Of a stretch of 64,000 nt of DNA, positions 9,635-38,354 are shown in pieces. The notes beneath the pieces are model-generated. The model did no database searches. It was given only the letters and a program-made list of their open reading frames with translations, and was not told the DNA's origin. The position numbers were made by a program, and so were the translations under genes. The DNA is taken from the sequence record OR352948.1. The stretch is one strand, 5' to 3'. This DNA comes from Escherichia phage AV118. The stretch's first letter is position 1. Every line of letters begins with the position of its first letter.

Positions 9635-9682
9635 TTATTATCCAATGAGAGCATTATACTCTGCTCTCAAGAGTTTGTAAAT
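9635..9682 (-). promoter_or_regulatory. Strong early-type promoter, copy 1 of a 48-bp perfect repeat
   Basis: Minus strand: TTTACA, 17 nt, TATAAT; the -10 sits in the loop of a gagagc/gctctc inverted repeat; identical 48-mer at 38307-38354. Confidence 0.6.
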
Positions 9683-9684
9683 CG

Positions 9685-9885
9685 TTATCCGAACTTTTTA
9701 GCGCCTTTCCAGCCTTCGTACATAACTGCACAAGTCAGTAGTACAGCATGCTGGCATTCTTTGTATTTGTAAATCCAGAACCAGCGTAAGAAGTCTTCAT
9801 CCTCAACGCCGTTGAGTTTCATATTGGCAAAGAATTCGGCACGTTCTTCACGAAGCTTTTGCGATAACATAGATTCAGGATTCAT
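9685..9885 (-). CDS. Hypothetical protein
   Basis: 66 aa ORF. Confidence 0.4.
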   Translation of the reverse strand: MNPESMLSQKLREERAEFFANMKLNGVEDEDFLRWFWIYKYKECQHAVLLTCAVMYEGWKGAKKFG

Positions 9886-10016
9886 TTTGTGTTCCAGGCC
9901 CCATTTTCATCGATGAACTTAATCCAGTCATTTACAGACCATTTAGTTGTATCGCCCTTTGGATTAACATTTAAAGTATATAATCCCTGCTTAAAAAGCA
10001 TTCGTTTGATATTCAT
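9882..10016 (-). CDS. Hypothetical small protein
   Basis: Internal start MNIKRML preceded by SD gaggaaa. Confidence 0.3.
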   Translation of the reverse strand: MNIKRMLFKQGLYTLNVNPKGDTTKWSVNDWIKFIDENGAWNTK

Positions 10017-10023
10017 AATTTCC

Positions 10024-10317
10024 TCAACTGTAACGATAACATTCGTTAGCTTTACGTTTGGCTTCAGTATGAGAAGTATTATAATCATAATCTTCTTTAC
10101 TGTAAACATCTTTTTTCAACTTACGAACTTCTTTGCGGAGTTGTCGATTCATTTCATTCTTGACTTCAGAATCAACGCCTTTCATACGTTTCCATTTATC
10201 TGAGCGGAAGATGTTTTCAACCATGTCTTTGTGGCTAACACCGTCAGGAGCTTTACGCTTACCAAAATAGTCGTAATCGCGAACTTTCAAATCTTTACGA
10301 CGATATGTTTTACCCAT
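10024..10317 (-). CDS. Hypothetical basic protein
   Basis: Lysine/arginine-rich ORF; SD gagg before the MGKTYRR start. Confidence 0.4.
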   Translation of the reverse strand: MGKTYRRKDLKVRDYDYFGKRKAPDGVSHKDMVENIFRSDKWKRMKGVDSEVKNEMNRQLRKEVRKLKKDVYSKEDYDYNTSHTEAKRKANECYRYS

Positions 10318-10324
10318 AAGTACC

Positions 10325-10612
10325 TCAGAGGTTGATTGATACAATGCGTTTGATAAAATTCACTTCACTTACTGAAAGGTCTTTAAGACCGATTGATTCT
10401 AAACGCTGAGTAAGCGTCAACATCGTGATATAGTCCCATTGTGTTTTAGACGTTTGATAAGTACGGACGCCATTAGCAATTTCAACATGCAAATCGGAAA
10501 TGGTAACGAATACCGGTCGCTCGTCATTAACTTTAAGGGTTAGAACAACTTTCTTTGAATCTAAACTAATCATTTTATTTTCCTCTGTGGTAGATGGTGT
10601 TAATCTTAACAT
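10325..10612 (-). CDS. Hypothetical protein
   Basis: 95 aa ORF. Confidence 0.45.
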   Translation of the reverse strand: MLRLTPSTTEENKMISLDSKKVVLTLKVNDERPVFVTISDLHVEIANGVRTYQTSKTQWDYITMLTLTQRLESIGLKDLSVSEVNFIKRIVSINL

Positions 10613-10740
10613 ATCTATCGAGGATGTAAACTGTTTTATGAAAATATTTTTTGATTTGAGAGGGGCACAAGGAGATAGTGAAGTGAAGATTCCAATGGAT
10701 TATATTAGAAATGAGATAAAGAAGACCAGGCGGCACCTGG

Positions 10741-11049
10741 TCAATCTTCTATGATATCAGAGTCATATCCTAATGAAATCAAGGACTTTTTAAACTCTGC
10801 AATATTCTTTTGTTTCTTATCATTTAAAAATATGACAGGATAACGAATATTAAGTGAAGTGAATCCTGCACGTTTAGCAAGAGATACGATTAAAGGACGG
10901 TCATATTCAATCTTACCATTATTAGTGAGGACTTTATAAAATGTATAAGGAGCATTGAGCTCCTTTAAAAGTTTTGTAACAGTATAACATCCTGGACAAC
11001 GTCCAACTTCTTCAGGGATGCCATAAATTTCAATCTTGTTGTGTTCCAC
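10741..11049 (-). CDS. nrdH: Glutaredoxin-like protein NrdH
   Basis: 102 aa with CPGC redox motif; adjacent to nrdG/nrdD as in T4. Confidence 0.7.
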   Translation of the reverse strand: MEHNKIEIYGIPEEVGRCPGCYTVTKLLKELNAPYTFYKVLTNNGKIEYDRPLIVSLAKRAGFTSLNIRYPVIFLNDKKQKNIAEFKKSLISLGYDSDIIED

Positions 11050-11051
11050 AA

Positions 11052-11264
11052 TTATTCCTTGCCAAGAACAGAATTCAGTTTATTAGTAATTTTGTCCAAA
11101 CGTTCATTGAATTCGCTGGAGGATAAACCCTTTTCCGGAGAAATTAAACTAATCACGAAAAATACAACAGTAAAAGGAATAAGAAAAATAGCTCCAACTG
11201 CCATAAATGAAAAGAACGTTACAGTTGTAAGAAAATCAGCTAAACCTTTACGAAATTTATACAT
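11052..11264 (-). CDS. Small membrane protein
   Basis: 70 aa with one hydrophobic helix (LTTVTFFSFMAVGAIFLIPFTVVFFVISL). Confidence 0.45.
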   Translation of the reverse strand: MYKFRKGLADFLTTVTFFSFMAVGAIFLIPFTVVFFVISLISPEKGLSSSEFNERLDKITNKLNSVLGKE

Positions 11265-11374
11265 ATTTGCCCTTAATTAACTAAGCATTGATAAGCACTA
11301 AACTATATTGCGAATAAAATTCTGGACCAAAACGAAAAATCATATCATTTATAGTATCCATAATGTAATTCAAT

Positions 11375-11845
11375 TTAATCATGTTTCCACACCCCATCGG
11401 TATTTGACCAAAGTCGCTGATTATCTGATCCTCGCCACAGCTTTTTAGTCGGAAGATTTTTCTCATACTTCCCATCAATAATAACATCAACATATTTAAG
11501 CATTTCTAGTTGTTTAATATCTTCAAAATTATATCCTGTCCACAACCAAATGCTTTTATTGGGATAAAGATTTTTAATAGTTTGAACCACAGAGTGAATC
11601 ACATCTCTGTTATCAGGATAGAGAGGGTCACCTCCGGTTATAGTCAATCCTTCTATATAATCATTATTCAAACATTCAATTAATTGTTCTAGTGTTTCAC
11701 CAGTGAATGGAATACCATTTCTAGCATTCCATGTTGATTTATTATAACACCCTTCGCATTTATGCAAACAACCCGTAACGAAAAGAACGACCCTGCAACC
11801 AGGGCCATTCACAAAATCGCAAGGATAAAATCTATCATAATTCAT
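11375..11845 (-). CDS. nrdG: Anaerobic ribonucleotide reductase activating protein NrdG (radical SAM)
   Basis: 156 aa with CxxxCxxC cluster (CLHKCEGC); same size as T4 NrdG. Confidence 0.9.
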   Translation of the reverse strand: MNYDRFYPCDFVNGPGCRVVLFVTGCLHKCEGCYNKSTWNARNGIPFTGETLEQLIECLNNDYIEGLTITGGDPLYPDNRDVIHSVVQTIKNLYPNKSIWLWTGYNFEDIKQLEMLKYVDVIIDGKYEKNLPTKKLWRGSDNQRLWSNTDGVWKHD

Positions 11846-13659
11846 TGGTGTTTAACCCTATGCATGATTTCTTTATTTTTACCGAGATTAAATCCGCGTT
11901 CGTTCGGATTTCCCAAATAACCGCATGTTCTTCTTATGGTGTTCATCTTTTTAGGATCAGTTTCTCCACAGATAGAACAAACAAATCCGTTTTCAGTAGG
12001 AGTCATTTCATGGGTACTTCCACATGTAAAACATTTATCTACTGGCATATTAACACCAAAATAATCTAAATGTTGTGCAGCATAATCCCACACGGCCTCA
12101 AGTCCTTTTAAGTTATTTTTCATATCAGGAAGTTCAACATAAGAAATGTGACCACCTGTCGCAATGAAATGATATGGCGCTTCACGAGAAATCTTTTCAA
12201 ACGGAGTAATATTTTCTTCTACTGAAACGTGGAAACTGTTAGTGTACCAGCCTTTATCGGTAACATCTTTTACACTTCCATATTTTTCTGTATCGAGTTT
12301 ACAGAAGCGATAACAAAGGTTTTCAGCAGGAGTCGAATATAAACTAAAAGCAAATCCAGTTCTTTCGGTCCACTGCTTAAGATGAGCATTCATTTTAGTT
12401 AAAATTTCTTGCCCAATATCACGACCGACAAGAATATTCAATTCGTGAATACCAATGTATCCTAAAGACACTGAACTTCTACCGTTTTTAAATAACTCAA
12501 TTATGTCGTCATCAGGTTTAAGACGAACCCCGAATGCACCTTCTTGGTAAAGAATAGGAGCTACAGTTGCTTTAACACCCTTTAAAGAACTAATTCTACA
12601 CATCAAGGCTTCAAAACACAGATCCATTCGTTCATTGAATAATTCAACAAATTTCTGTTCATTGAACTGTGTTCCAATATAAGAATCTAATGCGATACGA
12701 GGAAGATTCAGTGTTACAACGCCGAGATTATTACGACCGTCAAGAATTTCATTTCCAGTTGAATCTTTCCATACGCTCAAGAAACTACGGCAACCCATCG
12801 GAGAAACTGGAACTGAAGAACCGGTAATAGCTTTATTATTCTTAACTGAAATAATGTCAGGATACATTCTTTTGCTTGCACATTCTAACGCAAGTTGTTT
12901 AATATCATAGTTTGGATCATCTTTATAAAGATTAACACCTTCTTCAAAAAACATAACAAGCTTAGGGAAAATAGGAGTTATTCCATCACGTCCAAGGCCT
13001 TTAATGCGGTTTTTAAGAATTGCCTTCTGAATCATTCGTTCAGTCCAGTCAGTTCCTGTACCAAATGTAATTGTTACAAAAGGTGTTTGTCCGTTTGAAC
13101 TAAAGAGAGTATTTACTTCATATTCATAAGCTTGGAATGCATCGTATACATCTTTTTCTGTTTTAGATTGAGCATAATTCAACGCATCAGCGATTTGCCA
13201 TTTTTCTGCATCCTCAATATGTTTTGCATAGGTGCGTTTAACATAAGGAGAAAGTACTTTATCTACATTAGCAAAAGTCGTTCCGCCGTATTGATGGGAA
13301 GCAACCTGTGCAGTAATTTGTGCCATAATTGCAGTAGCAACACCGATTGATTTAGGAGTTTCAATCTGTGCATTACCAAGCTTAAATCCATTCTCAAGCA
13401 TTCCTTTTAAATCTACTAAACAGCAATTAGTAAAAGGCAATGATATACTGTAATCTAAATCGTGAAAATGAATTAATCCGACATTATGAGCATTTACAAT
13501 ATGGCTCGGAAGAATACTACAAGCGATATGTTTAGAAACAATACCGGCCATTAAATCTCTTTTTGTTGGAAAGACACGAGAATCTTTGTTGGCATTTTCG
13601 GTATTTAATTCTTTATCTTTATTTGAAATAAAATTTAAAACATCTTTCTCTAAAGACAT
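11842..13659 (-). CDS. nrdD: Anaerobic ribonucleoside-triphosphate reductase NrdD
   Basis: 605 aa, C-terminal zinc ribbon (CFTCGS...CSICG) and glycyl-radical tail (RTCGYLG); uninterrupted, no intron. Confidence 0.95.
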   Translation of the reverse strand: MSLEKDVLNFISNKDKELNTENANKDSRVFPTKRDLMAGIVSKHIACSILPSHIVNAHNVGLIHFHDLDYSISLPFTNCCLVDLKGMLENGFKLGNAQIETPKSIGVATAIMAQITAQVASHQYGGTTFANVDKVLSPYVKRTYAKHIEDAEKWQIADALNYAQSKTEKDVYDAFQAYEYEVNTLFSSNGQTPFVTITFGTGTDWTERMIQKAILKNRIKGLGRDGITPIFPKLVMFFEEGVNLYKDDPNYDIKQLALECASKRMYPDIISVKNNKAITGSSVPVSPMGCRSFLSVWKDSTGNEILDGRNNLGVVTLNLPRIALDSYIGTQFNEQKFVELFNERMDLCFEALMCRISSLKGVKATVAPILYQEGAFGVRLKPDDDIIELFKNGRSSVSLGYIGIHELNILVGRDIGQEILTKMNAHLKQWTERTGFAFSLYSTPAENLCYRFCKLDTEKYGSVKDVTDKGWYTNSFHVSVEENITPFEKISREAPYHFIATGGHISYVELPDMKNNLKGLEAVWDYAAQHLDYFGVNMPVDKCFTCGSTHEMTPTENGFVCSICGETDPKKMNTIRRTCGYLGNPNERGFNLGKNKEIMHRVKHQ

Positions 13660-14471
13660 AATTCTAATTTATCCTTTTGAAATTCTTCGTCTAAATATGG
13701 GTTCCAACCCATTTTAAACCTTTTGATGAAATTATCAATTCTAAATTTCGGTAAATTTAACTCCGCAAAAATAGATGATTTACTTTTAAAATCTGGACCT
13801 AAATAATCATATAAAATTTCTGCGTATTTTAACCATAATATATAAGTACCAGATTTAATTGCTCTAGGAGTTTTCCAAGGTTTTACGCCGTACATCGGAT
13901 TTCCACTTCCTTTATGCCTGATAGAAGATGAAATTCCAATTTTAATTTTAGCTTCCTTTGTGTGCGAAAATCCATGATGTGGATTTTCTTTCCAGTATTT
14001 TTTAGAAGCTTCTGATATTTTCTTTCTGGCTAAATTAGTATGATGCTTTCCATAAAATCCATGATTTTTACCTTTATTACGATTTCTTTTAATCATGGTT
14101 ATTGATTGCTTTTCTCTAGTTTCTTTAGAAGGAGAAACACCGTACGTTGTAAATTGACCATTAGCATATGCTAAATTAAAATACTCTTTATTCCATATAT
14201 CTTTTTCTATATTCTTTTGAAATTCAGCTTCAATGCTAGTTATTTGTTCATCTCCGACTAATTGAAAATATAATATTTCAACTTTCGGTGTTTCTTTCAA
14301 CAGAGCTTTTTGAAATTCGGAAGATGACGAAGACGAATAATAAAATTTACCATTTTTATCAATAATATTCGTTCCGTCAAAAGTGCAATTGGTTTTACTT
14401 CCAATATAATAATATGGCGGGGTTTTAGCATTAATTCTACTAATAAATGATAGTTTATATACTACATTCAT
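13650..14471 (-). mobile_element. Free-standing homing-endonuclease-like gene (Seg-like), paralog of 1946-2836
   Basis: N-terminus VYKLSFI...YYYIGSK, shared EYFNLAYAN segment, C-terminal repeats GKHHTNLARKKIS and HGFSHTKEAKIKIG; ATG abuts the gene 49 stop (TGAATG); inserted between 49 and nrdD. Confidence 0.45.
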
Positions 14472-14941
14472 TTTAAACTCTTTCTAAGCTGCTTCTTAAA
14501 TGAAGCTATTAATTGTGTTTTGGTGTCAGATTCATTATATTCAAATCCTCTTTGAAGCATCTCGGCCATCATTTCCTCTTTTCCTAAACGAGAAAATTCC
14601 TTTGATTTATCTCCAACGAAGTTAGGGTGAATATTATTTTGGGTGTAATCGGATTTTAAATAAGTAAGTAAATTTTCTAACCATTCAAGATAATCAACGC
14701 CTTGTCCCTTTAAACCAGAGCGATTAAATTTATGTTTCATTTGACCTTCTGCAGCATTGCAGAGATTACAAAGCAATCCACGTACCTTTCCTGCTTTTGG
14801 TCCATTTAATTCATGGTCATGATCGAGGTGATTAGCTTGAACATCAGGATTTAGTTCTCGTTGGCAAATTAAGCATTTACCGTTTTGTGCATCATAAAAT
14901 TTCTGTTTTTCTTCTTTATATAATTTGCCAGTCAATAACAT
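14468..14941 (-). CDS. 49: Endonuclease VII (Holliday junction resolvase) gp49
   Basis: 157 aa, same length as T4 endo VII; Cys/His zinc site (CLICQ...HLDHDHE...CNLCN). Confidence 0.9.
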   Translation of the reverse strand: MLLTGKLYKEEKQKFYDAQNGKCLICQRELNPDVQANHLDHDHELNGPKAGKVRGLLCNLCNAAEGQMKHKFNRSGLKGQGVDYLEWLENLLTYLKSDYTQNNIHPNFVGDKSKEFSRLGKEEMMAEMLQRGFEYNESDTKTQLIASFKKQLRKSLK

Positions 14942-14983
14942 AATAAAACCCTTACCTTAAATAGATAAGGGTATTTATTATTT

Positions 14984-15469
14984 TCAAGTATTGTAAAACA
15001 TTTGATGCAATCGCTTATATTGCCGAATCATTTGGTCAGAAAAAGAAATTTGAGTTTCAAGCCATTCAATGTATTCTGCGGCAGCTTGCATCAGGTTACC
15101 TTCATAGCCATCGTTATTTTCTTGTGCAGCTAATTTAGCTAATGCGTATGAAATACGTTCACCTTGAAAATCGGCTTTAGGCTTCTGAACAACTTGATTA
15201 GTTCGCTCTACAACTTCTTCAATTTCGCCATTTTCGACTGATTCAGTATTCCACAAACACCAATACGTAATTGGCTTATCGTAGATGTTAATAATCTTTC
15301 CATCAGAAAGTTCAATTTCAATAATTCCAGTATCAGGTTCTATATCATCTTCACATTCTTTTGCAAGTTCACGAACTTTAAAGACAGTACCTGCACTAAG
15401 TTCCGGCCAGTAATTACACAGCCCTGTATCAGCACGATTAATTCTAAACCACTTATCTACTGTAATCAT
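14984..15469 (-). CDS. Hypothetical protein (pin/49.1 position)
   Basis: ORF with SD ggag before the MITVDKW start. Confidence 0.45.
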   Translation of the reverse strand: MITVDKWFRINRADTGLCNYWPELSAGTVFKVRELAKECEDDIEPDTGIIEIELSDGKIINIYDKPITYWCLWNTESVENGEIEEVVERTNQVVQKPKADFQGERISYALAKLAAQENNDGYEGNLMQAAAEYIEWLETQISFSDQMIRQYKRLHQMFYNT

Positions 15470-15592
15470 GTCCCATCTCCATATCAATTAAGTCATTTAT
15501 CGTTGGTTCATTATACACCGTTTCTTCATCAGTGTAAACCGGTTCTTCCGGCTCTGGCTCTACAGTTTCCCATCTAGCCGCCCACCAAGGTT

Positions 15593-15913
15593 TTATAGCG
15601 TAATCCATTCTCTTACTGTCTGAGTTACTACACGTTCTCGAAGCTCAACCAGTTCAACGGTAGGAACTGCATAATACCAATCAGAATGGTAAGAACCTGA
15701 GCGAGATTCATTTACAGCCACATGTACATTATGTTTTGGACTAAAATAAACACACTGACGATATTGGCATTTACCATCTTGCACCCAGTCTTCTATTTCG
15801 ACAGGTTTAAGATAATCGGAAAAATCGAAATCATAGTTTTCTGAAAATGCATCATGGTCTTCAATGATTTCACTCAGAACTGCATCAACATCTAATTTAT
15901 TTTCAATAGTCAT
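15593..15913 (-). CDS. Hypothetical protein
   Basis: 106 aa acidic ORF. Confidence 0.45.
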   Translation of the reverse strand: MTIENKLDVDAVLSEIIEDHDAFSENYDFDFSDYLKPVEIEDWVQDGKCQYRQCVYFSPKHNVHVAVNESRSGSYHSDWYYAVPTVELVELRERVVTQTVREWITL

Positions 15914-15923
15914 TTTTCACCAA

Positions 15924-16133
15924 TTAATTTCGCAATTTATTAAGTTCTTCATAATCAATCCAGGATTCTAATCCTGATGGCAAATCAGATTCAATTTCCC
16001 AAAGAAGTTCTTCAATTTTATGAAGACGATCTAGTTCTTCAGCAGGAATAGTAACCATTGACGGAGCTTTTGCTACATTAATATCGTAAATCATATTTAC
16101 CCCAGTTTGACCATACAATCGCCGTATTTCCAC
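15924..16133 (-). CDS. Hypothetical protein
   Basis: 69 aa ORF. Confidence 0.4.
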   Translation of the reverse strand: MEIRRLYGQTGVNMIYDINVAKAPSMVTIPAEELDRLHKIEELLWEIESDLPSGLESWIDYEELNKLRN

Positions 16134-16312
16134 TTAGAAATAGACTTTTCACCGTTAGAATAATAAACTTCAAGTTTAGCACGATTATTTTTAATTTGAA
16201 TAACCTTTGCTGTCATCAAAGTTCCATACCCATAATAAACTGCAACTTCATCACCTACATATACCGCGCTTCCGCGGTAATCGTGAATATAGTCAGTTCC
16301 TTCGAGCATCAT
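16097..16312 (-). CDS. Hypothetical protein
   Basis: 71 aa ORF. Confidence 0.4.
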   Translation of the reverse strand: MMLEGTDYIHDYRGSAVYVGDEVAVYYGYGTLMTAKVIQIKNNRAKLEVYYSNGEKSISKWKYGDCMVKLG

Positions 16313-16572
16313 TTAAAATATTCTCGCAGTTGGTCAAATCCACCAATATGACTTCCATCAGGAGCAAATACTTGTGGCATTGTCAAACCAATTTGAGTAT
16401 CACGACCTAGTTTAGCCAGAAGCTCAGCGATTTTCTCATCATCAAAAACACCTTTTTCCGGCATAATGTTGATAAATTCAAACGGCTGTTTCTTCACGGT
16501 CAAAAGACGTTTTGCATTATCGCAATACACACATTTATGAATGTTGCTATCATAACCATATACTTTAAACAT
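16309..16572 (-). CDS. nrdC: Thioredoxin/glutaredoxin NrdC
   Basis: 87 aa with CVYC active site; essentially identical to recalled T4 NrdC. Confidence 0.9.
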   Translation of the reverse strand: MFKVYGYDSNIHKCVYCDNAKRLLTVKKQPFEFINIMPEKGVFDDEKIAELLAKLGRDTQIGLTMPQVFAPDGSHIGGFDQLREYFK

Positions 16573-16594
16573 ATTATTCCTTAATTCCTAGTAC

Positions 16595-16816
16595 TCATTT
16601 AAAAGTCTCGTCGTAATCAAGACTTTGGCCCGTTTGTTCTTTATGTTTGTATATAATATCACTTACTTCTGATAGCATATTTTTATATGAACGAGTTAAA
16701 GCAGATTTAAGCACGCTGTATCTATCAGGAAATTTACCATGTTCATTATAATACGCTATTGCTAATTCACGGACTGCCTTTTCAGCAGTCTCCGTATATT
16801 CTTTACGCTTTGTCAT
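16595..16816 (-). CDS. Hypothetical protein (nrdC.1-like)
   Basis: 73 aa ORF. Confidence 0.45.
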
Positions 16817-16818
16817 TT

Positions 16819-17208
16819 TTAATCCAAAATATTATTAGGCATTGGTTGAACACTCACAAGTTCTTTAAAGAACTCAGTAGAATCAGGCAATTTAACCATT
16901 TCCGGAGCATGCTTACTGAATTTATGTTTACATTGACGGCATTTATATTCAAGCTCTGGTTTACGCCAGTTAATCAATTGAACTTGTTCAGTACCGCATT
17001 CAGGGCAATTAGGAACGTTTTTAGAAGCTCTTTCACGTCGTTCAACCATAGCCATAATAGCATCCCATGCTGGAGGTTTAAAATCTAAATCGTCGCAGCC
17101 GTGAATCTTTCCACGCATTTCCATATCATCTTCCTCACCAGCCATAATAATTTTAATTAAACTGGAATTACTTGAAGCTGCAATGTCTTCTAATAAACGC
17201 TTTTTCAT
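16819..17208 (-). CDS. Zinc-ribbon protein (nrdC.2-like)
   Basis: 129 aa with CPECG...CRQCKH. Confidence 0.5.
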
Positions 17209-18155
17209 TTCAATACCTCAATAGCATTACGTAAACCATTTGCTTTTGCATTAAGAGCTTTTAACAATTTGGTGTGTTCTGCAATTTGGGCTTCAACTCC
17301 AATCAAACGGGCATTGAGATATTCACGTTCTTCACTCAGATTATCAACCTTTTCTACTTTAGGCTCTTTTACAACTGTCTTATATGTATTAGGGTTCTTC
17401 AGTTTAATTAGAATGCGTGAACTGTACAGCATTGAATCATTATCTTCGGATTCGTCGAACGTTTCAACAACATCCATAGTCTCTAACAATGTAATAAGTT
17501 TATAAGACAACGAACGAATAGTTTTGTTGTGCTTATTAATTTCTTCGGCTTTCATGGTACCGAGATTACGTGAGTAATAATAAGGAACCTGGATATCAAT
17601 TGATAATGATGCGTTACCATTACCGGTTGGTTTGAATACTGCAGTAACCCAATCTTTAACATGAACTTTATTTGTACGACCATCACCGCCTGTGAATAAT
17701 TTACGAGAATGTTTAAAAAGCATATTCACTTGTTTATTGAATTCACAAGCAAATTTATCAGCGAATTTAGTTTCAGGAATGGTAGATAACCAATCAGCCA
17801 AATGAGTCTTTTTAACATCATTAACAATAGTGAATTCAACCAAATCGGTTTTAGATGTCACAGATTTAATAAAGCTCGGCTTCATAAAGTTTTTAATGTT
17901 ATCGCGAGCTACAGTAGAAGATAATAAACGAGAACGTTTGAACCATTGAAGCAGTGTCCCTAATGAATGAGAATACGCATTCTGAGTATCTTTACAGATA
18001 TGATTTTCTTGGCCTGTATATGTACCAAAATCTCGAAGAATACCACTTACTACATCTCGGTGTGGAACATCAAATCCTAGTGCACCAGAAGCGCGCTGAG
18101 CATGAACGTTAGCGATAAGACCGGCAAAGTATTCAATGTAATGTGAACGTGTCAT
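17205..18155 (-). CDS. Hypothetical protein with C-terminal coiled coil (nrdC.3-like)
   Basis: 316 aa ORF; assignment by size and order only. Confidence 0.5.
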   Translation of the reverse strand: MTRSHYIEYFAGLIANVHAQRASGALGFDVPHRDVVSGILRDFGTYTGQENHICKDTQNAYSHSLGTLLQWFKRSRLLSSTVARDNIKNFMKPSFIKSVTSKTDLVEFTIVNDVKKTHLADWLSTIPETKFADKFACEFNKQVNMLFKHSRKLFTGGDGRTNKVHVKDWVTAVFKPTGNGNASLSIDIQVPYYYSRNLGTMKAEEINKHNKTIRSLSYKLITLLETMDVVETFDESEDNDSMLYSSRILIKLKNPNTYKTVVKEPKVEKVDNLSEEREYLNARLIGVEAQIAEHTKLLKALNAKANGLRNAIEVLK

Positions 18156-24452: not shown

Positions 24453-24463
24453 TGATAGATGCC

Positions 24464-24491
24464 AAAAAGCCCCGACCTTTCGGAAGGGGCT
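24464..24491 (-). terminator. Rho-independent terminator downstream of rI
   Basis: Minus-strand RNA agcccc-ttccgaaaggtc-ggggcu followed by UUUUU; same sequence recurs at 39588-39615. Confidence 0.6.
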
Positions 24492-24497
24492 AGTAAA

Positions 24498-30129: not shown

Positions 30130-30131
30130 TG

Positions 30132-30758: not shown

Positions 30759-30764
30759 TTTTCC

Positions 30765-31178
30765 TTAGTAAATTGATTTACCATAGTATTTGTACCAAGT
30801 CGGACGTTGAGCAATTTTTTCATCTAAGCGTGCTTGACTTATCGCAATGGACGCTTCAGACGGGACGTAATTATTACGAAATTCTATAGGAATGTCGGAA
30901 ATATCCTGGACAGTCGTGTCCTTGATTTTGAAACCACGTTTCAAGCATTCAGCGATTAGTTCGATTTGACGTAAACGTAAAAATTCGAGTTTGTCGTAAA
31001 AGAATGTTACGTGACCTGTGCCTAAGATAAATGTTGGAGAGATTTTAAAATCCTTTACACGTTTACCGTTTTGAACATGTTTACGGACTGCACCAAATAC
31101 GCGTGGTAATTCACGATACTCAGCCATAAGATGTTGGTCGGTCAGTTCAGAAACAAGTGTTAAATTGATACGGGTCAT
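30765..31178 (-). CDS. denV: Endonuclease V (pyrimidine-dimer DNA glycosylase)
   Basis: From [12 protein letters not shown] it is 138 aa and near-identical to recalled T4 DenV. Confidence 0.9.
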
Positions 31179-31183
31179 AATTT

Positions 31184-31235
31184 CCTCCAAGTAGTTGATG
31201 AATGTATAGTATCAAAGTCCTTGGAGGAAGTAAAC
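31184..31235 (-). promoter_or_regulatory. Promoter/stem-loop cassette upstream of denV
   Basis: 8-bp inverted repeat cctccaag/cttggagg around gtatagtatc, with gtaaac at the end; the denV SD ggagg lies in one arm. Confidence 0.5.
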
Positions 31236-31236
31236 A

Positions 31237-31518
31237 CTATTTTTCTGAAGCGCCTGAAATATATTTTTCAAGACGTTGTTTCATTAGCGAGCCGTTCTTA
31301 GCGATTTCTTCCGGTTTATCGCACATACGTAACAAGGCTTCAAGCTTAGCGATATCGCTGGTACGTTCAAATTTGCGAGTATCTATCTTACTAGCAAGTT
31401 CAGAAATACGTGCTAATAGACTTTCAGCTTCAACCAAAGCTGCACCTAGCTTAGTTGCAAATGTGTCAGTAGCTTCATTAAGAATAGATTCTGATAAAAA
31501 TTCATTGTATGTTTTCAT
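31237..31518 (-). CDS. Internal-protein-like head protein (ipII/ipIII position)
   Basis: From the internal start [10 protein letters not shown]|S; lies between e and denV as ipII/ipIII do in T4. Confidence 0.55.
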
Positions 31519-32003
31519 ATATACGCTTTCCAAGTTCCTGTTTTAAATGTTGAGATTACGCGTTTCGCGCGATTAGGTGTCTGACGATACCATTTAGATT
31601 GGGCTAGATTTACTGCCGCTTCGTCCCAACGTTTCTGTTGAAGCATACGAAGAGAATTAGTAAAACCGGCGACGCCTGCTACACCCATTTGGAAGACCAT
31701 ATTGACCAATGCACATCGACGAACCGCATCTAAAGAATCATATACCGGTTTAAGTTTAGCATTACCCAAGATTCCGCGAACGGCTTTATCAACGTCTTCA
31801 TTAAATAGCTTTTCAGCCTCATCGAGGGTAATTGTACCGTTGCATTTACGTCCGATCATTCTGTCAAGTTCAGCTTTAGCTACGGCTAAAGACGGGTTCT
31901 TTGTTACTAAATGGCCTATGCCAATCGTCCAAAAGCCTTCAGTGTCTTTGTATAAAGTTAGTCTAAGACCTTCGTCATTACGAAGCATTTCAAATATATT
32001 CAT
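31515..32003 (-). CDS. e: Lysozyme (endolysin)
   Basis: From MNIFEML it is 162 aa with high identity to recalled T4 lysozyme (catalytic region EGLRLxxYKDTEGxxTIGIGH). Confidence 0.9.
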
Positions 32004-32030
32004 AATACCTCCCACGTTTATAGGAGGTAT
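32004..32030 (-). promoter_or_regulatory. SD-sequestering hairpin with embedded late-promoter-like box upstream of e
   Basis: Minus strand acctcc-TATAAACGTG-ggaggt, then att-ATG; the 3' arm is the SD; loop TATAAACG is one mismatch from TATAAATA. Confidence 0.45.
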
Positions 32031-32037
32031 TTATTAC

Positions 32038-32496
32038 TTATAGGAGGGTAGTGAGCACCTTATATAATGATTTGCCCATTACATATTCCCATTGAGAAGG
32101 TTTAATTAAAGCGAATGCATCAAATTCAGGAATCTGACGTCCGTCTGGGAATGTATGATAGGAATTACAAACACTGTTTCTGAATTGCTCGTGCTCTACA
32201 GGGATGGTATATAGGAACAGATGAATATTCTTATTATCTGAGTAATGATGTTCACCTAGGTCTTTCAGGAAGGCAGGGTCATATTGTGTAAACCCAGTTT
32301 CTTCTTCGCATTCACGAATAGCGGCTTCAATAGGAGATTCGCCAGGTTCGACATGGCCTTTAGGAATATCCCACCGATGAGCTAAAGAACCTTTAGGACG
32401 AGAACCAGTTACACGCCCCATGAATAATTCTTTATCTTCGGTAAGGAAAATAATACCGGCTGATAGTTCTTTCACTTTATTTTTCTTACTCATCAT
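32038..32496 (-). CDS. nudE: Nudix hydrolase NudE
   Basis: Nudix box GHVEPGESPIEAAIRECEEETG; position after e as in T4. Confidence 0.8.
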   Translation of the reverse strand: MMSKKNKVKELSAGIIFLTEDKELFMGRVTGSRPKGSLAHRWDIPKGHVEPGESPIEAAIRECEEETGFTQYDPAFLKDLGEHHYSDNKNIHLFLYTIPVEHEQFRNSVCNSYHTFPDGRQIPEFDAFALIKPSQWEYVMGKSLYKVLTTLL

Positions 32497-32737
32497 CTCG
32501 GTCCCATGATTTGGCCATTAATTCGGACATAAATTCTTCAATGCGCGTTTCTTTAGATGGACTTTCACTATTAGAGACCGCAAGTTTGTAATCTGCAATA
32601 GGACAGAACATATCAAGGTCCATATTAAGGTCGTCTTTGATTTTTTCTTCTGACACATCTTTATCGTATGTGTACAGATAACTATCACATGATTCTGATT
32701 TAATGTAAATTGCTATACTCATCTCAAATTCCTGCAT
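32486..32737 (-). CDS. Hypothetical acidic protein
   Basis: 83 aa ORF. Confidence 0.4.
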   Translation of the reverse strand: MQEFEMSIAIYIKSESCDSYLYTYDKDVSEEKIKDDLNMDLDMFCPIADYKLAVSNSESPSKETRIEEFMSELMAKSWDRDDE

Positions 32738-33198
32738 TCGGTAATAAAACGTTCAACTTCATTATTCTTGGCTTTTATCTTGTCTTTATGTTCTTGTAAA
32801 CTACTTTTAATAAGATTAATAATGATAGCGACAGTGCCGCCGCCAATGATGCCACCAATAATACTTACGATAGTAGATGCTAATAAGATAGCAATAATAT
32901 CAACAAAACCGAAAGAACTCACCTTAGTACTAAAAAACCATATAGACGGTACAAATATAATCCATCCTGTTATCCATTGGCACTTATTGAAAAACTTTTC
33001 AAGCTCAGCTTGAGTTGTTCGTATTACTTCATCGATAGGTTGATATCCGTTAATGTATCTGTTCACGATAATACCTGCTGACTGGTCGATTTTAAATTCT
33101 TGGCAAATATGTTTCACTAAGTATGATGGACATCCTGTCCAATCTACTGAATAGTATGAAATACCTTCATTGCCGTCGTCTATATTATTGTTAATCAT
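32719..33198 (-). CDS. Membrane protein
   Basis: Two long hydrophobic segments including a GGIIGGG-rich helix. Confidence 0.45.
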   Translation of the reverse strand: MINNNIDDGNEGISYYSVDWTGCPSYLVKHICQEFKIDQSAGIIVNRYINGYQPIDEVIRTTQAELEKFFNKCQWITGWIIFVPSIWFFSTKVSSFGFVDIIAILLASTIVSIIGGIIGGGTVAIIINLIKSSLQEHKDKIKAKNNEVERFITECRNLR

Positions 33199-33884
33199 TA
33201 CCAGCCTTCCATAGGGAATTCCAGATAAACTTGAGCATTGACACGAATTTCATTGGTAATCTTTTTAACTCGGTCTGTATTACGAGATACACGTCCGAAC
33301 CAACGCCATCCGTTACTAATTGCACGAGAACCAGTGTGCCATGTTTGCCAATCAAATTGAAGAAGAGTACGGTCTGGAGCTTCCCATTTCTCTAGTTCGC
33401 CTTTTTCGATTTTTTCGAGGACTTCTTTGTGCCACTGGCGATAGATAAGTTTGCCATCAGGAATCTGACTGAACTCTGCAGTTCCTGTTGCAAAATGAGT
33501 AGGACACACATCAGCGTTAACAAGACCAAGAATATGTTCAGACAAATAGCGAGGATTGTCATAGTCAGGTTGTCCTGCAGTAATAAAGTGTTGACCAACT
33601 GGAATATCAGGGCGTGGAACATCGTCATGGTGATATCCAGGAATAGCAGGGTACCAGCCAGGCATCAGCATGTGGACTCGTGAATCAAATACAACATCCG
33701 AGTCTTTCCAATCGTCAGGGAGATTTTGGATAAAGCTACGAGTAATTGGACCGCCATTATCAAAAGCAAAATTCAAATCGCAATTAAAGAACATAGGCTC
33801 GTTTTTAATCTGGCCATTTTTAATCGCATGAGCAAAACCACCTACTGCACGAGCTTGACTATTAAACACTTTAGAACTATTCAT
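33198..33884 (-). CDS. Hypothetical protein
   Basis: 228 aa, His/Asp/Trp-rich; no family assignable by eye. Confidence 0.45.
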   Translation of the reverse strand: MNSSKVFNSQARAVGGFAHAIKNGQIKNEPMFFNCDLNFAFDNGGPITRSFIQNLPDDWKDSDVVFDSRVHMLMPGWYPAIPGYHHDDVPRPDIPVGQHFITAGQPDYDNPRYLSEHILGLVNADVCPTHFATGTAEFSQIPDGKLIYRQWHKEVLEKIEKGELEKWEAPDRTLLQFDWQTWHTGSRAISNGWRWFGRVSRNTDRVKKITNEIRVNAQVYLEFPMEGW

Positions 33885-33885
33885 A

Positions 33886-34191
33886 TTATTTTCCTCGGCA
33901 TTCTTTAATGAAATTTTCTAGATTGGTAGATTCAATAGCTTTTTTACGAGCTTCTGCATGTTCTTCTTCGGACAATTTACATTTATAATTGACCCAGACA
34001 TTATGGTCGAAACTAGTCGTGGCATATAATAACAATGCTCCAACGAATAGCAAAAACGGTGATAAGAATACAAAACCAGGAACACCATCCATACTGTAAG
34101 CCTTTTGTAATACTGCAACAGAAAGAGCTGCGTAAAAAGGTGATGCAAATATTGTTAAAAGACCAATTCGGTTGGTTTCGCCTAATTTCAT
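33886..34191 (-). CDS. Membrane protein
   Basis: 101 aa with two hydrophobic helices; SD gaggag. Confidence 0.45.
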   Translation of the reverse strand: MKLGETNRIGLLTIFASPFYAALSVAVLQKAYSMDGVPGFVFLSPFLLFVGALLLYATTSFDHNVWVNYKCKLSEEEHAEARKKAIESTNLENFIKECRGK

Positions 34192-34204
34192 AATATTCTC
34201 CTCA

Positions 34205-34249
34205 TGTTTTAATAGGACTACTATAACATAATCCTATAATTATGTAAAC
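34205..34249 (-). promoter_or_regulatory. Promoter/stem-loop cassette
   Basis: aataggactactataacataatcctat...gtaaac. Confidence 0.4.
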
Positions 34250-34261
34250 AGTTTTGCGAAA

Positions 34262-35218
34262 TTATTTGAAAGGTTTTACCATATGAAAATTTTCTTTAAA
34301 CCGTTTGATGTAATCATTTTTGCCGAGCTTATGATACATAGCCACTACTTCATAATAGTTCTCGTATGCGTACTCACGGAACCAACCGGAGGTGATGCTT
34401 GTGCAGACTTTTTCTAATGCCATCATGAAACTGGCTTCAGGGTTAATTTTAAAGTCATTAGGAATTTGAGAACGTTCTAATGCTAGTACACATGATTCTT
34501 CATATACACCAGCCAGTTTAATCATTTCGGGTAACGATTCGAACTTCTCGCGTGAGGTCATGACTTCAGAACCGTCTTTCATATAAAATGTATACGCTGG
34601 ACGGTCTGTTAGTGCAATGGCTTCATGAATAGTATCATGGTCATATGTATAGATGTCATCTTTAAAGAACGCACTTTTAGAAGTGTCAAGAACTGGGTGA
34701 GCATAGTTCAAGGTTTCTTTCTGGCGTTTCAGCATAATTTCAGTAAGTTCATCGTTCAGTGTAACACCTTTACCACGAAGATACTGAATATGGTTCATAG
34801 TCTTTAAAAAGAATGGATTATTTTTCTTGAAACGATGAGACATCTTAATTGCAAGACCTATCTCAGGAGTTGCCCAGTAAAACCCGTTCAAACGGTCTTT
34901 AGTCAAATTTTTCTTGGCGTATTTTAAAAGGTCATAAGAAGACGTGAAATCTTCAGGAGTGAGTTCACCGACTAATTCACGGACATTAGTGATTGCCGGA
35001 ACAATATATGCTTCAAAATGAGTTTCGCGTCCATTATGGAAGCATTTGAAAACTTGGACATCAGGGTTATCTTGGTGAACATATACACCCATCATTTGAT
35101 TTTTGAATGCATTCCAAGAACCTTGGTCCGCAATAAAGTCCCAATCACTATTTTTGATAGCGCTAGAATCAATAAGACCGTGATAGTGAAGTGCACGAGA
35201 ACCAATAACTAACATCAT
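34262..35218 (-). CDS. Hypothetical protein, possible nucleotidyltransferase-like N-terminus
   Basis: GSRALHYHG...SDWDF loosely fits a GS...DxD signature; weak. Confidence 0.4.
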   Translation of the reverse strand: MMLVIGSRALHYHGLIDSSAIKNSDWDFIADQGSWNAFKNQMMGVYVHQDNPDVQVFKCFHNGRETHFEAYIVPAITNVRELVGELTPEDFTSSYDLLKYAKKNLTKDRLNGFYWATPEIGLAIKMSHRFKKNNPFFLKTMNHIQYLRGKGVTLNDELTEIMLKRQKETLNYAHPVLDTSKSAFFKDDIYTYDHDTIHEAIALTDRPAYTFYMKDGSEVMTSREKFESLPEMIKLAGVYEESCVLALERSQIPNDFKINPEASFMMALEKVCTSITSGWFREYAYENYYEVVAMYHKLGKNDYIKRFKENFHMVKPFK

Positions 35219-35243
35219 AATAATTTCCTCGAATTTAGATTAC

Positions 35244-35483
35244 TTAAATTTCGCGACATGCGATATCATATTCATCCCAGAGGTCATCATGTGAAGCCTC
35301 TACCAATGGAACGATTGTACCGTTTATGTCTTCATTATAAGGGCAAATTGTACAGTGCGCATCTTCGAATCGGATGCCTTTGTGTTCAGATTTTTTATAA
35401 CGCATATCGAATATCTTTGCAAACTTTTCACGAGTAATGGTTTTAGCAACCACTTTGGTTCCAATACTTTCATAATAAATCAT
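35244..35483 (-). CDS. Hypothetical protein
   Basis: Start MIYYESIG with SD ggag. Confidence 0.4.
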   Translation of the reverse strand: MIYYESIGTKVVAKTITREKFAKIFDMRYKKSEHKGIRFEDAHCTICPYNEDINGTIVPLVEASHDDLWDEYDIACREI

Positions 35484-35494
35484 CGTGGACTCCA

Positions 35495-35541
35495 TTTAAT
35501 TTGATAGGACTACTATAACATAGCCCTATCTTGTTGTAAAC
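35495..35541 (-). promoter_or_regulatory. Promoter/stem-loop cassette
   Basis: ttgataggactactataacatagccctatc...gtaaac. Confidence 0.4.
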
Positions 35542-35545
35542 TGTT

Positions 35546-35743
35546 TTAGCAAGAATAACTAGATGATACCCAGCCTTGAACAGTGATACTATTGTGGGAT
35601 AATGAGATCGCGTCCTGGAGATTCAGACCTGCGTTATCTTCAATCCATAATGTAACTTCTTCGCGTTCTTCTGTTGCAATTTGGAACAGGTTTTCCAGGG
35701 CAGCTACTGCCGTACGTACAGCACAATCTAATTCACGAGACAT
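35546..35743 (-). CDS. Small protein, paralog 1 of 3 (C-terminal GWVSSSxxC family)
   Basis: 65 aa ending ...TVQGWVSSSYSC. Confidence 0.5.
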   Translation of the reverse strand: MSRELDCAVRTAVAALENLFQIATEEREEVTLWIEDNAGLNLQDAISLSHNSITVQGWVSSSYSC

Positions 35744-35752
35744 ATCGTTTCC

Positions 35753-36025
35753 TTAGCAAGTGTGAGAAGATGCGACCCAACCACCAGTTTCGAGGCTCAG
35801 GTTGTAGTCGTATTGGTAAACGTCAGCCCATTCAGCATAGCCGTTTTTTGTACAACGTTCAAGATCGGCTTTAAGATGTCCGGGTGAATGATAGGTTCCA
35901 CCCATACCATAAGCTGGGTACAAGTCGAATGTTGTGTTTTGTTTATCAGCAATTTCTTTGGCAGCCTCAATAGCTGCATAGATTTTTGCTACAGCTTCAG
36001 CCAGTTCGGTTTGTTCTTTAGACAT
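35753..36025 (-). CDS. Small protein, paralog 2 of 3 (C-terminal GWVSSSxxC family)
   Basis: 90 aa ending ...LETGGWVASSHTC; junction to the next gene is tgcTAAGGAAnnnnnATG. Confidence 0.5.
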   Translation of the reverse strand: MSKEQTELAEAVAKIYAAIEAAKEIADKQNTTFDLYPAYGMGGTYHSPGHLKADLERCTKNGYAEWADVYQYDYNLSLETGGWVASSHTC

Positions 36026-36034
36026 AATGATTCC

Positions 36035-36340
36035 TTAGCACAACGCAGAAGACGAAACCCAAGCACCTTCAGTAATAACGTAACCATTACCTTCACGCTT
36101 AACATCGCCACCGTTATTTTCAATTTCATTTTTCATCCACTGGGATACGATTTCACCCTTAGGATAATAAGTACGACCGCTACCATAATCACCTACAGAA
36201 AATGATACGGCATATTGGTCTGCGATCTTTGTTGCTTCTTCTTCGATACGTTCAGATTGATTCAGAAGTTTATAAATTGCATCTGAAGCAGATTTGGCAT
36301 CATTAAACTCTGGTACTTTAATTTCAATAATCTTACTCAT
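36035..36340 (-). CDS. Small protein, paralog 3 of 3 (C-terminal GWVSSSxxC family)
   Basis: 101 aa ending ...ITEGAWVSSSALC. Confidence 0.5.
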   Translation of the reverse strand: MSKIIEIKVPEFNDAKSASDAIYKLLNQSERIEEEATKIADQYAVSFSVGDYGSGRTYYPKGEIVSQWMKNEIENNGGDVKREGNGYVITEGAWVSSSALC

Positions 36341-36696
36341 TTTCTACATTCCTTAATAAAGTTTTCGATTGTTTCATTTTCACGTCTAGCTAGGAGTTCA
36401 TTATAACTAATCATTTGAGAAGCGTAAATCTTTTTATTTTTCTTGTTATGGTAAATAAAGTCATAGTAAAAATAGACTACAGTACAAAATGATGCGATGG
36501 ATGCAAAGGCTTGGGTATACCGTAAGTCCTGCCATTGGTCTGTGAATCCGCCAGTGTTCCCTATAAATCCTAACACAACGCCGTCAATAAGAAATCCAAC
36601 TAATCCAAAGGCAAATCCCATGCCAATACTCATAATAAAAATTAGAATGTTCTCACCAAGAGAAGGCCATACGGTTAAGAGTTGAGGCTTTTGCAT
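36337..36696 (-). CDS. Membrane protein
   Basis: 119 aa with hydrophobic helices; SD aaggaaa. Confidence 0.45.
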   Translation of the reverse strand: MQKPQLLTVWPSLGENILIFIMSIGMGFAFGLVGFLIDGVVLGFIGNTGGFTDQWQDLRYTQAFASIASFCTVVYFYYDFIYHNKKNKKIYASQMISYNELLARRENETIENFIKECRK

Positions 36697-37037
36697 CTTA
36701 TTTCCTTAACGAATTCCATAGCTTCTTCATATTCATACTTTTTAACAACTTCATCATACTGAGCTTGGGCTTTTGCGCACTGAACTTTCCATTCACGAAC
36801 TCGAGCTCTGTGATGACGGCCTTGGTACCAATATCCCACTCAGTTAATAGGCATTAATAAAAATGGCACAATAAACGACCCGGCTATAATAAGTAAAAAC
36901 ACTGCATCAGACGATATAACTTTATTGGAATCTAAAATAGCTCCTATAATCATAAAGATTAAAAATGCTAAAGCTAAAATAGGGCCAAATAATACTTCGT
37001 TTGGGATTAATTTACGTTTGTATTCGTATGCCCAGGC

Positions 37038-37639
37038 TTAATTGGCATGTACAGGGTTGGCTTTGACATATTCTCTACATTCCATAATAAATTGCTCAAG
37101 GATTAAATTGTTAGTGAAATTAGGACTAACAACCATAGTTTCATAAAGCGCATCAATAGCACTTAAAGCATCAACTCTTTTAAGCAAAGGCTTGCCTTCA
37201 TACATAGTTTCAGAATCGACGATTAAAGTGAAGTAGTATTTTTTATTATCGACTAGAACTTCTGTATCGATATAAAACATATTAGACCTCAGAAGCTTAT
37301 CTCTAAAACCATAATAATCTTTAGAGCGTTCGCTGATATATTCCCATTCAGTGTTTAAACAACAAACAGACCATGTAGGAGCAACGAAATCGGTGAATCT
37401 AATATCATGGTCTGCAACTAGTTTAGCAATAGCTCCGATATCATGAATCATAATACCTGGGGCTAATAAAGATTTTCTGCTATGGCTAGCCGTTTTCTCA
37501 GTAGTCTCATAAGAAGACGACCAGTACCATTTACGTCCAGTTGCAACATATCGTAATGAATCAACTAAAGACGTAGGTGGATTTACCTTATCTCGGAACT
37601 CTTCGAACATTGAGTCAATATCATTATTTTGGTTTCGCA
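37038..37639 (-). CDS. Hypothetical protein
   Basis: About 200 aa from MRNQNN with SD aaggag; no recognisable motif. Confidence 0.45.
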
Positions 37640-37661
37640 TGTTAACTCCTTTATTATCCAA

Positions 37662-37688
37662 AAGGAGGACCGGAGTCCTCCGTATTAT
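37662..37688 (-). terminator. Rho-independent terminator
   Basis: Minus-strand hairpin ggaggac-uccg-guccucc followed by UUUU, directly after the stop at 37690. Confidence 0.45.
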
Positions 37689-37689
37689 T

Positions 37690-38283
37690 TTATTTCAAAG
37701 AGTTAATATATTCTTGTACATCAGCAGAAGTGGTTTCGACACCAGCTGGAGTGCCATTGAACGTTTCAACACGAGTCAGAGTGTCTTCGATATCAACCTT
37801 AGTCAGTGCAGCGATTTCAATTACATCATCGGCCGTAGAGATACCAAGGGCATTAGCTGCTCGAGTTTCACGAATGTATTCGAGTTTGATTGCCAGATTC
37901 TGACGAGCATCATCAAGTTCAACCACCTTACGAGCAATTTCAATTCGCATAGCGGCATACCCGTCAGCTTTTGTATTAAGTTGTTCGGCAGTTCGACGAT
38001 ACAGAAGACCAAGCTTAGCATGCATGGTAACATCTTGTCCTTCAGCCAAGAGCTTACGAATTTCACGTTCCTTAGAAGCGGCTTGCTTGTTCTTTTCATT
38101 AACAAGTTCGCGAATACGTTTTTCTTCATTAATAGATTTAACAGAAGCCGTTTTTAGTTCTTTGATTTGGGTAATCAACTTATCTGCAGCTGCGTTATAC
38201 TGTTCTTCGACAGTCAGATTTTTAGCCATAGCAGTACCCAGTTTAGTGCGGATGAATTCAACAAGTTTTTTCAGTGTGTTCAT
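37690..38283 (-). CDS. Coiled-coil protein of unknown function
   Basis: About 197 aa from MNTLKKL; heptad-rich central region; driven by the second copy of the 48-bp promoter repeat. Confidence 0.5.
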
Positions 38284-38306
38284 ATTATTACCTTTCAATT
38301 GGTGGT

Positions 38307-38354
38307 TTATTATCCAATGAGAGCATTATACTCTGCTCTCAAGAGTTTGTAAAT
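38307..38354 (-). promoter_or_regulatory. Strong early-type promoter, copy 2 of the 48-bp perfect repeat
   Basis: Identical 48-mer to 9635-9682 (TTTACA, 17 nt, TATAAT on the minus strand). Confidence 0.6.

Follow-up and report, generated by a model that had tools for sequence, protein, structure and literature searches.

Why would a phage carry the same short sequence twice, letter for letter, 28.7 kb apart and in front of genes that bear no relation to each other? The question is raised by Escherichia phage AV118 (sequence record OR352948.1). The window we analysed is a stretch of 64,000 nucleotides from that phage, one strand read 5' to 3', and the original prediction made from its letters was of a 48-bp perfect repeat, carrying a consensus promoter, at positions 9635–9682 and 38307–38354. 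Our answer is that the two copies, which proved to be 49 bp long, are probably paralogous early cassettes of the PeSL type (an early promoter combined with a stem-loop). Promoter, embedded hairpin and RegB/S1 site would be packed together in each, and the copies would owe their identity to constraint plus homogenisation.

Two copies in different company

The window contains exactly two occurrences of the 48-mer, with no mismatches between them. No third copy within three mismatches exists in the window, and none of 100 dinucleotide-preserving shuffles produced a match. The predicted repeat is thus exact, and a repeat search extends it by a base pair: positions 9634–9682 equal 38306–38354, in direct orientation and 28,672 bp apart. 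Divergence begins immediately outside both copies, and the flanks are unique. On the minus strand the repeat reads ATTTACAAACTCTTGAGAGCAGAGTATAATGCTCTCATTGGATAATAAA.

The window comes from a Mosigvirus, one of the RB69 group of T4-type phages, its closest record being Escherichia phage AV115 (99.5%), and the genes around both copies run on the minus strand. When the window is aligned with the annotated RB69 genome, copy 1 falls between genes 55.3 (9685–9885, DUF5490 in Pfam) and 55.2 (9283–9615, DUF7570), and copy 2 between frd.3 (38354–38581, Phage_FRD3, PF05798) and e.6 (37690–38283). The first base of copy 2 is the final base of the frd.3 stop codon. That the downstream genes are unrelated, as had been claimed, is borne out: no Pfam family matched the e.6 protein, and BLASTP found no alignment between it and the 55.2 protein. 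The element is present in 160 independent phage records at one to four places each, and 67 of those records have a copy at least 99% identical.

A predicted promoter with a hairpin inside it

On the minus strand the unit can be parsed as A-TTTACA-AACTCT-TGAGAGC-AGAG-TATAAT-GCTCTCA-TT-GGATAATAAA. A consensus scan finds TTTACA-17-TATAAT at both sites, 11 of 12 positions agreeing with the sigma-70 consensus, which upholds the predicted minus-strand promoter as one of the sigma-70, T4-type early class. We call the two promoters P55.2 (-35 at 9676–9681, -10 at 9653–9658) and Pe.6 (-35 at 38348–38353, -10 at 38325–38330). Readings as a middle promoter (MotA box) or a late promoter (TATAAATA) were rejected, since the sequence fits neither. 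Each promoter comes directly after the stop codon of its upstream gene (55.3 or frd.3) and before the Shine-Dalgarno sequence (SD) and ATG of the downstream gene (55.2 or e.6), whose orientation it shares. Upstream of the -35, the Pe.6 flank is AT-rich (GATTAAAAAATAA) and that of P55.2 only 56% AT.

The inverted repeat around the -10, which the original prediction had recorded, is also real: TGAGAGC(A) pairs with (T)GCTCTCA in an 8-bp stem that leaves the -10 in its loop (-13.8 kcal/mol, z score about -3.4 against shuffles). The 5' arm falls within the promoter spacer, at 9663–9669 and 38335–38341, and the 3' arm at 9646–9652 and 38318–38324. From spacing alone, transcription is predicted to start on the base that ends the 3' arm, at 9646 and 38318, 7 nt past the -10. 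With a start there, the promoter's own transcript would lack the 5' arm, and the hairpin could form only in RNA coming from the upstream gene; read-through RNA from 55.3, for example, would carry it in full. In centroid folds of 121–125 nt read-through RNAs the hairpin is kept at both loci.

More than a curiosity, the stem is conserved and covaries. The promoter belongs to a family, ACAAACTCT-N8-GAGTATAAT, whose members precede motB in T4, ndd in Mosigvirus and the orthologous 55.2 in JS98-like phages; many contigs from IMG/VR and metagenomes also contain one. A strict 46-nt pattern found only three loci in IMG/VR. The set that was analysed comprises 26–28 distinct promoters, from IMG/VR and metagenome pattern scans plus fetched phage records; covariation was run on an alignment of 26 sequences, and arm combinations and strand bias were counted on 28.

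The blocks ACAAACTCT and GAGTATAAT are invariant; the arms that they enclose vary yet remain complementary. Across the 26 sequences 97.8% of stem cells hold a standard pair, against 30–48% in slid controls, and six of the seven stem pairs have changed on both sides. The covariation score is 0.615, compared with 0.287 in shuffles, and was reached by none of 500 shuffles. The 28 sequences contain 16 arm combinations, eight of them fully Watson–Crick, among them GAGAGC/GCTCTC, GAGAGA/TCTCTC, GAGGAC/GTCCTC and GGGACC/GGTCCC, and further GGGAGC/GCTCCC, GGGAGT/ACTCCC, GGGGTC/GACCCC and AGGAGC/GCTCCT. Read in the sense strand, the cells of the six inner pairs that are not Watson–Crick are 12 G.U, no A.C and one C.U. 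Paired cells amount to 99.4% in sense and 92.3% in antisense. This bias towards one strand speaks against a sequence-specific duplex operator or a symmetric cruciform. It argues for an embedded stem that would have been selected as a single-stranded fold of the sense strand, most simply in read-through RNA.

Several observations adjoin this hairpin. The start of the spacer (ACUC, columns 8–11 of the family alignment) could pair with the end of the spacer plus the first T of the -10 (GAGU, columns 21–24), giving an H-type pseudoknot with the main stem. For the pairing ACUCU/AGAGU there is a single compensatory example, T-A to C-G in the metagenome member L073, the other columns being invariant or fixed by the pattern. 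In GenBank, the SA35RD annotation calls the same promoter-embedded hairpin a 'rho-independent terminator' (L007, 1515–1548; L156, 323–356), and no U-tract follows it there. The start of 55.2 is annotated in two ways. The open reading frame (ORF) listing and the annotation of phage mogra (mogra_206, 123 aa) use an ATG at 9654, inside TATAATG; the SD-preceded ATG at 9615 gives 110 aa, as in RB69, and is graded the more plausible.

A predicted RegB/S1 box in the leader

The leader that follows the stem, GGAUAAUAAA(A), had been described as about 18 nt of shared sequence. Shared it is, though not anonymous, and only some 13 of the 19 bases after the -10 would be transcribed from the promoter. It matches GGA(G/U)RAYARAA, the target of RegB/S1 (Durand et al. 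2006, PMC1702504). Copy 1 has GGATAATAAAA at 9633–9643, minus strand, which agrees with the consensus at 11 of 11 positions in a strict scan; copy 2 has GGATAATAAAC at 38305–38315, also minus strand, agreeing at 10 of 11, with C at position 11. The corresponding stretches of the two leaders read GGAUAAUAAAA and GGAUAAUAAAC. The strict consensus has four matches in the 64 kb, all in minus-strand early leaders, and copy 1 is one of them. The predicted box, GGAU, stays single-stranded in the centroid folds at both loci, and the regB gene itself lies in the corresponding RB69 interval between the two copies.

Two T4 leaders resemble this arrangement closely. The first is that of motB, the model RegB substrate: the site is cut in vivo, and the shortest cleavable RNA ends GGAGUAUAAAA (PMC1702504). 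The motB promoter gives a primer-extension stop in vivo (PMC1702504). The motB promoter is a homologue of the whole cassette, reading AGTTTACAAACTCTTG-GGACC-AGAGTATAAT-GGTCC-CGTGGAGTATAAAA where the window has TTTACAAACTCTTG-AGAGC-AGAGTATAAT-GCTCT-CATTGGATAATAAA, and the box after its stem, GGAGTATAAAA, is the mapped RegB site. It differs in gene context, in two compensated pairs of the stem, and in having GGAG rather than GGAU.

The second is the leader of T4 orf 55.2, the orthologous gene, in which a hairpin precedes an identical GGATAATAAAA box whose GGAU is cleaved by RegB. Only two intergenic GGAU sites are cut in T4, orf 55.2 being one, and a single GGAU site was found in RB69 (PMC1702504). 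The T4 55.3/55.2 junction has an intrinsic terminator with a UUCG loop abutting GGATAATAAAA and no promoter; in the window the hairpin is embedded in a promoter. The other T4 GGAU site reported as RegB-cleaved (PMC1702504) belongs to motB.2. Its early promoter (L006, 2640–2780) has a 10-bp stem, TAGTTGTGGT/ACCATAGCTA, with two G.U pairs, which encloses the -10 and ends 4 nt before GGATAATAAAA.

How the two copies came to match

The two promoters vary to different extents in the relatives. Pe.6 is nearly invariant across Mosigvirus and varies only at +1, +3 and one position of the box. P55.2 comes in several alleles. In the window and mogra it is identical to Pe.6; in HX01 it has the e.6-type stem with an altered -35; in JS09 the stem is a G.U variant; in EP02SG and APCEc01 it is a mosaic, GAGAGC/TCTCTC, with the closing pair broken; and in RB69, BEU50, MRostami, SA35RD and ATK47 it has diverged to GAGAGA/TCTCTC. 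Five differences separate the two promoters of RB69, and those that fall in the stem compensate each other. The promoters of 55.2 and e.6 are old paralogues across Mosigvirus, and they are identical in some lineages only, other relatives having mosaic or diverged 55.2 alleles. The earlier proposal of 'recent duplication, gene conversion or strong selection' named the right family of explanations, though the event need not be recent.

A third copy of the cassette stands before ndd in relatives. The stem GAGAGC/GCTCTC is common to all three Mosigvirus loci (55.2, e.6 and ndd), while the orthologous P55.2 of JS98 has GGGACC/GGTCCC. That three paralogous loci share one stem and the JS98 orthologue has another points to paralogues that were homogenised, or copied from one another, within Mosigvirus.

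The loci also bear scars. In most of the Mosigvirus genomes compared, a 300-bp cassette holding a second promoter, PA, and ORF075c sits between 55.3 and P55.2 with its breakpoint at the -35; it is absent from the window, mogra, JS98 and T4. In SA35RD (L156, 72300–73300) and an IMG/VR contig (L005) a 282-bp ORF, SA35RD_142, is inserted into Pe.6. The insertion has a 9-bp direct repeat, TGTACAAAC, on either side, and what remains after frd.3 is a half promoter with a -35 only. Judged by such footprints, recombination at these cassettes is evident in relatives at both loci, in line with what the original prediction had supposed and with what is documented for T4-type phages (PMC2839356, PMC4122927). 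At about 38590–38650 the promoter before frd.3 differs throughout from its counterparts in RB69, mogra, BEU50, MRostami and EP02SG, with the downstream gene unchanged; in the window it looks like a promoter swap.

Two ideas were tried and rejected. The state of +1, A or G, at first looked concerted between the loci (7/7 genomes); with APCEc01, HX01 and JS09 added, three genomes were discordant. A recent conversion of P55.2 coupled to loss of ORF075c does not hold either: HX01 has an e.6-type stem together with ORF075c, and JS98 lacks ORF075c, so the events are uncoupled.

What could exchange between the copies themselves do? It had been suggested that the intervening 28.7 kb might be inverted or deleted. 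Inversion is impossible between direct repeats; a crossover would give deletion, excision of a circle, or duplication. On the RB69 map the interval holds 55.3–55.8, nrdH/G/D, 49, pin, nrdC, tk, vs, regB, denV, e, nudE and e.2–e.6. Genes 49 and e are required for plaque formation in T4, and with a duplication of 28.7 kb the genome would exceed headful capacity. With 49, e and other core functions in the interval, a deletion would not be viable alone, and any exchange that survived is likely to have been a non-crossover or to have involved co-infecting relatives. The order of genes over the interval is colinear in all relatives examined, with small indels and an e.6-to-55.2 distance of 26–31 kb, which fits the survival of non-crossover exchange only.

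A probable PeSL-type element in the RB69 group

PeSLs were described by Arbiol et al. (2010, PMC2839356) as early promoters with a stem-loop that contains G-T pairs and in most cases either sits in the spacer between the two hexamers or overlaps the -10. They are repeated in hyperplastic regions, and have been proposed and in part shown to act as terminators or attenuators and as recombination substrates that delete, insert or circularise the ORFs they flank (PMC2839356). Comeau et al. (2014, PMC4122927) extended them to T4/PST and KVP40/nt-1. The AV118 cassette likewise combines an intergenic, strong sigma-70-type early promoter with a stem-loop overlapping the -10, is repeated over the genome, and sits at breakpoints of indels and replacements: ORF075c at 55.2, SA35RD_142 in Pe.6, the promoter swap before frd.3. 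By every feature of a PeSL that can be read from DNA, the cassette is a PeSL-type element in the RB69 group.

There are differences. PeSLs have been published in RB49/phi1, T4/PST and KVP40/nt-1, not in the RB69 group, and their stems are often polyG/polyC. The published recombination involves neighbouring copies and circles of 0.4–1.4 kb, whereas the AV118 copies are 28.7 kb apart. The descriptions of PeSLs in PMC2839356 and PMC4122927 make no mention of a RegB site as part of the unit.

Another relevant precedent is the group of T4 genes e, 49, soc and I-TevI, where a promoter lies inside the region encoding a hairpin, and long and short transcripts fold differently (PMC3014915). As there, transcripts begun inside the AV118 hairpin would lack the 5' arm and read-through RNA would fold it. 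In the T4 genes, however, the ribosome-binding site is hidden in the hairpin, and the promoter inside it is of the late or middle class; in the window the stem ends about 25–30 nt before the SD, which is not covered.

How the cassette may work

The explanation we favour, and consider probable, runs as follows. An intergenic stretch of roughly 50 bp, from a stop codon to the ribosome-binding site that follows, would hold a strong sigma-70 early promoter, a 7–8 bp stem and a RegB box. For both 55.2 and e.6, host RNA polymerase would begin early transcription where the stem ends, producing RNAs with no hairpin and a RegB site almost at the very beginning. Read-through from 55.3 or frd.3 would carry both arms and fold the hairpin, which may attenuate read-through, or shield the 3' end left by a RegB cut 2–3 nt downstream, or both. 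Nearly every position would be constrained: the -35, the -10, the paired arms, the purine at +1 and the RegB box. On top of this constraint, recombination or gene conversion at the cassettes would have homogenised the paralogues (55.2, e.6 and, in relatives, the ndd copy) within Mosigvirus.

Several points weigh against this explanation. Promoter activity, the position of +1 and RegB cleavage in AV118 are carried over by homology and remain presumptive. The patterns that gathered the family fix part of the promoter, so that conservation outside the stem is in part ascertainment. The hairpin has no U-tract after it, the tail being AUUGGAUAAU, and a terminator scan was negative at both loci; if the hairpin attenuates, it is not as a canonical intrinsic terminator. 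Sequence 5' of GGAG is dispensable for RegB cleavage in vitro (PMC1702504), which means that the hairpin is not part of the RegB recognition site. As for the homogenisation, the arrangement 55.3-P-55.2 without ORF075c is that of the JS98 outgroup and possibly ancestral, the +1 state is concordant between loci in nine of 12 genomes, and the perfect identity could have been retained from an older homogenisation.

Other explanations

The alternative that fares best moves the emphasis from promoter to RNA. Here the hairpin and RegB box, not the promoter, would be the conserved unit, an RNA-processing module that fixes and protects the 3' ends of upstream early cistrons. RegB would cut 1–4 nt past the stem, and promoters would pass through the hairpin simply because so little room is left between genes. 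The 55.3/55.2 junction fits, since it keeps a hairpin plus GGAUAAUAAAA in T4, as a terminator hairpin without a promoter, and in JS98 and Mosigvirus, as promoter hairpins. So do the G.U pairs confined to the sense strand, and so do the three RegB-cleaved T4 sites examined, motB, 55.2 and motB.2, all of which have a hairpin ending 1–4 nt before GGA. We hold this idea tentatively. If it were true, there would be a mechanistic link between PeSL stem-loops and the turnover of early mRNA that RegB drives.

Somewhat more doubtful is that purifying selection alone, acting on two old paralogues with no free sites, accounts for the identity without conversion or recent exchange. The near invariance of Pe.6, the outgroup-like order at 55.2 and the discordance of +1 between loci in three of 12 genomes count in its favour. 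It has to contend, however, with a P55.2 that clearly tolerates change, as its five allele classes in relatives show, and with mosaic alleles in which two neighbouring bases have gone over to the e.6 state in one step. The stems tell the same way: the orthologous JS98 P55.2 differs by two compensated pairs, and three loci in Mosigvirus that are not orthologous share one.

We think it improbable that the hairpin acts in DNA, as a cruciform or a hairpin of the non-template strand that affects promoter melting or makes a recombination hotspot. PeSL stem-loops did block sequencing of single-stranded DNA, and a role in DNA recombination has been speculated (Arbiol et al., PMC2839356); G.T wobbles are tolerated in DNA too. 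A stem of 7–8 bp with a loop of 8–10 nt, however, makes a poor cruciform, and a symmetric one is excluded by the one-strand G.U bias. T4, moreover, keeps a different hairpin and the same RegB box without a promoter at the same junction, which ties the hairpin to RNA.

Should the arms instead be an operator for a dimeric DNA-binding protein of phage or host, a candidate for the shut-off of early promoters? They lie on either side of the -10, where a repressor classically binds, and reviews call the shut-off mechanism unknown (PMC2988021; PMC3014915). What is conserved, however, is complementarity and not the sequence of the arms, which come in 16 combinations, and G.U pairs occur on one strand only (12 versus 0), favouring a single-stranded fold over recognition of a duplex. 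About half of the window's 21 early promoters have hairpins that span the -10, unrelated in sequence and in a different register. A repressor site is accordingly a reading to which we give very little weight.

Just as little can be said for programmed rearrangement, in which the copies would be sites for inverting or excising the 28.7 kb or the target of a dedicated recombinase. The 49 bp of perfect identity may be set beside the statement, attributed to Singer 1982 in PMC2839356, that less than 50 bp of homology is enough for recombination in T4, and PeSL mini-circles have been detected by inverse PCR in RB49/phi1 (PMC2839356). Direct orientation excludes inversion, however, the interval carries 49, e, nrdD/G and other core functions, and gene order is colinear in every relative examined. 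Finally, a sequencing or assembly artefact, with one site a collapsed or copied repeat, can be dismissed as next to impossible: the unique flanks recur in independent genomes, AV115 shows 100% identity over the 55.3/55.2 junction, both copies in mogra are identical to each other, and 160 records carry the element.

Other features of the window

Hairpins of 8–12 bp that enclose a -10 occur on the minus strand with -10 boxes at 42220, 41845, 35517, 34225, 23979 and 19831, and there is a further site at 3456–3518; z scores go down to -6.4. At several of these hairpin-bearing early promoters the SD is a strict RegB consensus site, GGAGAACAAAA. Another TTTACA-17-TATAAT consensus lies on the minus strand at 10078–10106, inside the 3' end of an ORF and about 60 nt upstream of the next SD/ATG. 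A separate promoter family, in freshwater metagenome contigs (L053–L146), reads TACAAACTCTGCYGCCTATGC-TATAAT-NTAACATAGGAGAAC. Its hairpin, CCTATG/CATAGG, encloses the -10, covers the GG of a GGAG SD and has sense-strand U.G variants.

The window has a second perfect direct repeat, of 34 bp, at 24459–24492 and 39583–39616, with a 76% copy at 39040–39073. This repeat is a GC-rich intrinsic terminator of the minus strand (GCCCCTTCCGAAAGGTCGGGGCTTTTT), directly upstream of early promoters. Two tRNA genes (Rfam RF00005), at 40293–40366 and 40470–40541 on the minus strand, match the RB69 tRNA region. At the 49-bp repeat itself, no Rfam family was matched.

What the cassette means for RB69-like phages

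PeSL-like cassettes have already been described in T4-like phages, and AV118 does not reveal a new kind of element. For annotators it offers a caution: these hairpins should not be labelled rho-independent terminators, nor should the ATG inside TATAATG be taken as the start of 55.2. For the phages themselves, the RB69-like Mosigvirus join the groups in which repeated promoter/stem-loop cassettes mark the breakpoints of gene shuffling. They do so with an unusually clean case of covariation, 16 arm combinations within one promoter family, and with a cassette linked to a characterised RNase site, RegB/S1, which suggests that the hairpin may have a role in the processing of early mRNA.

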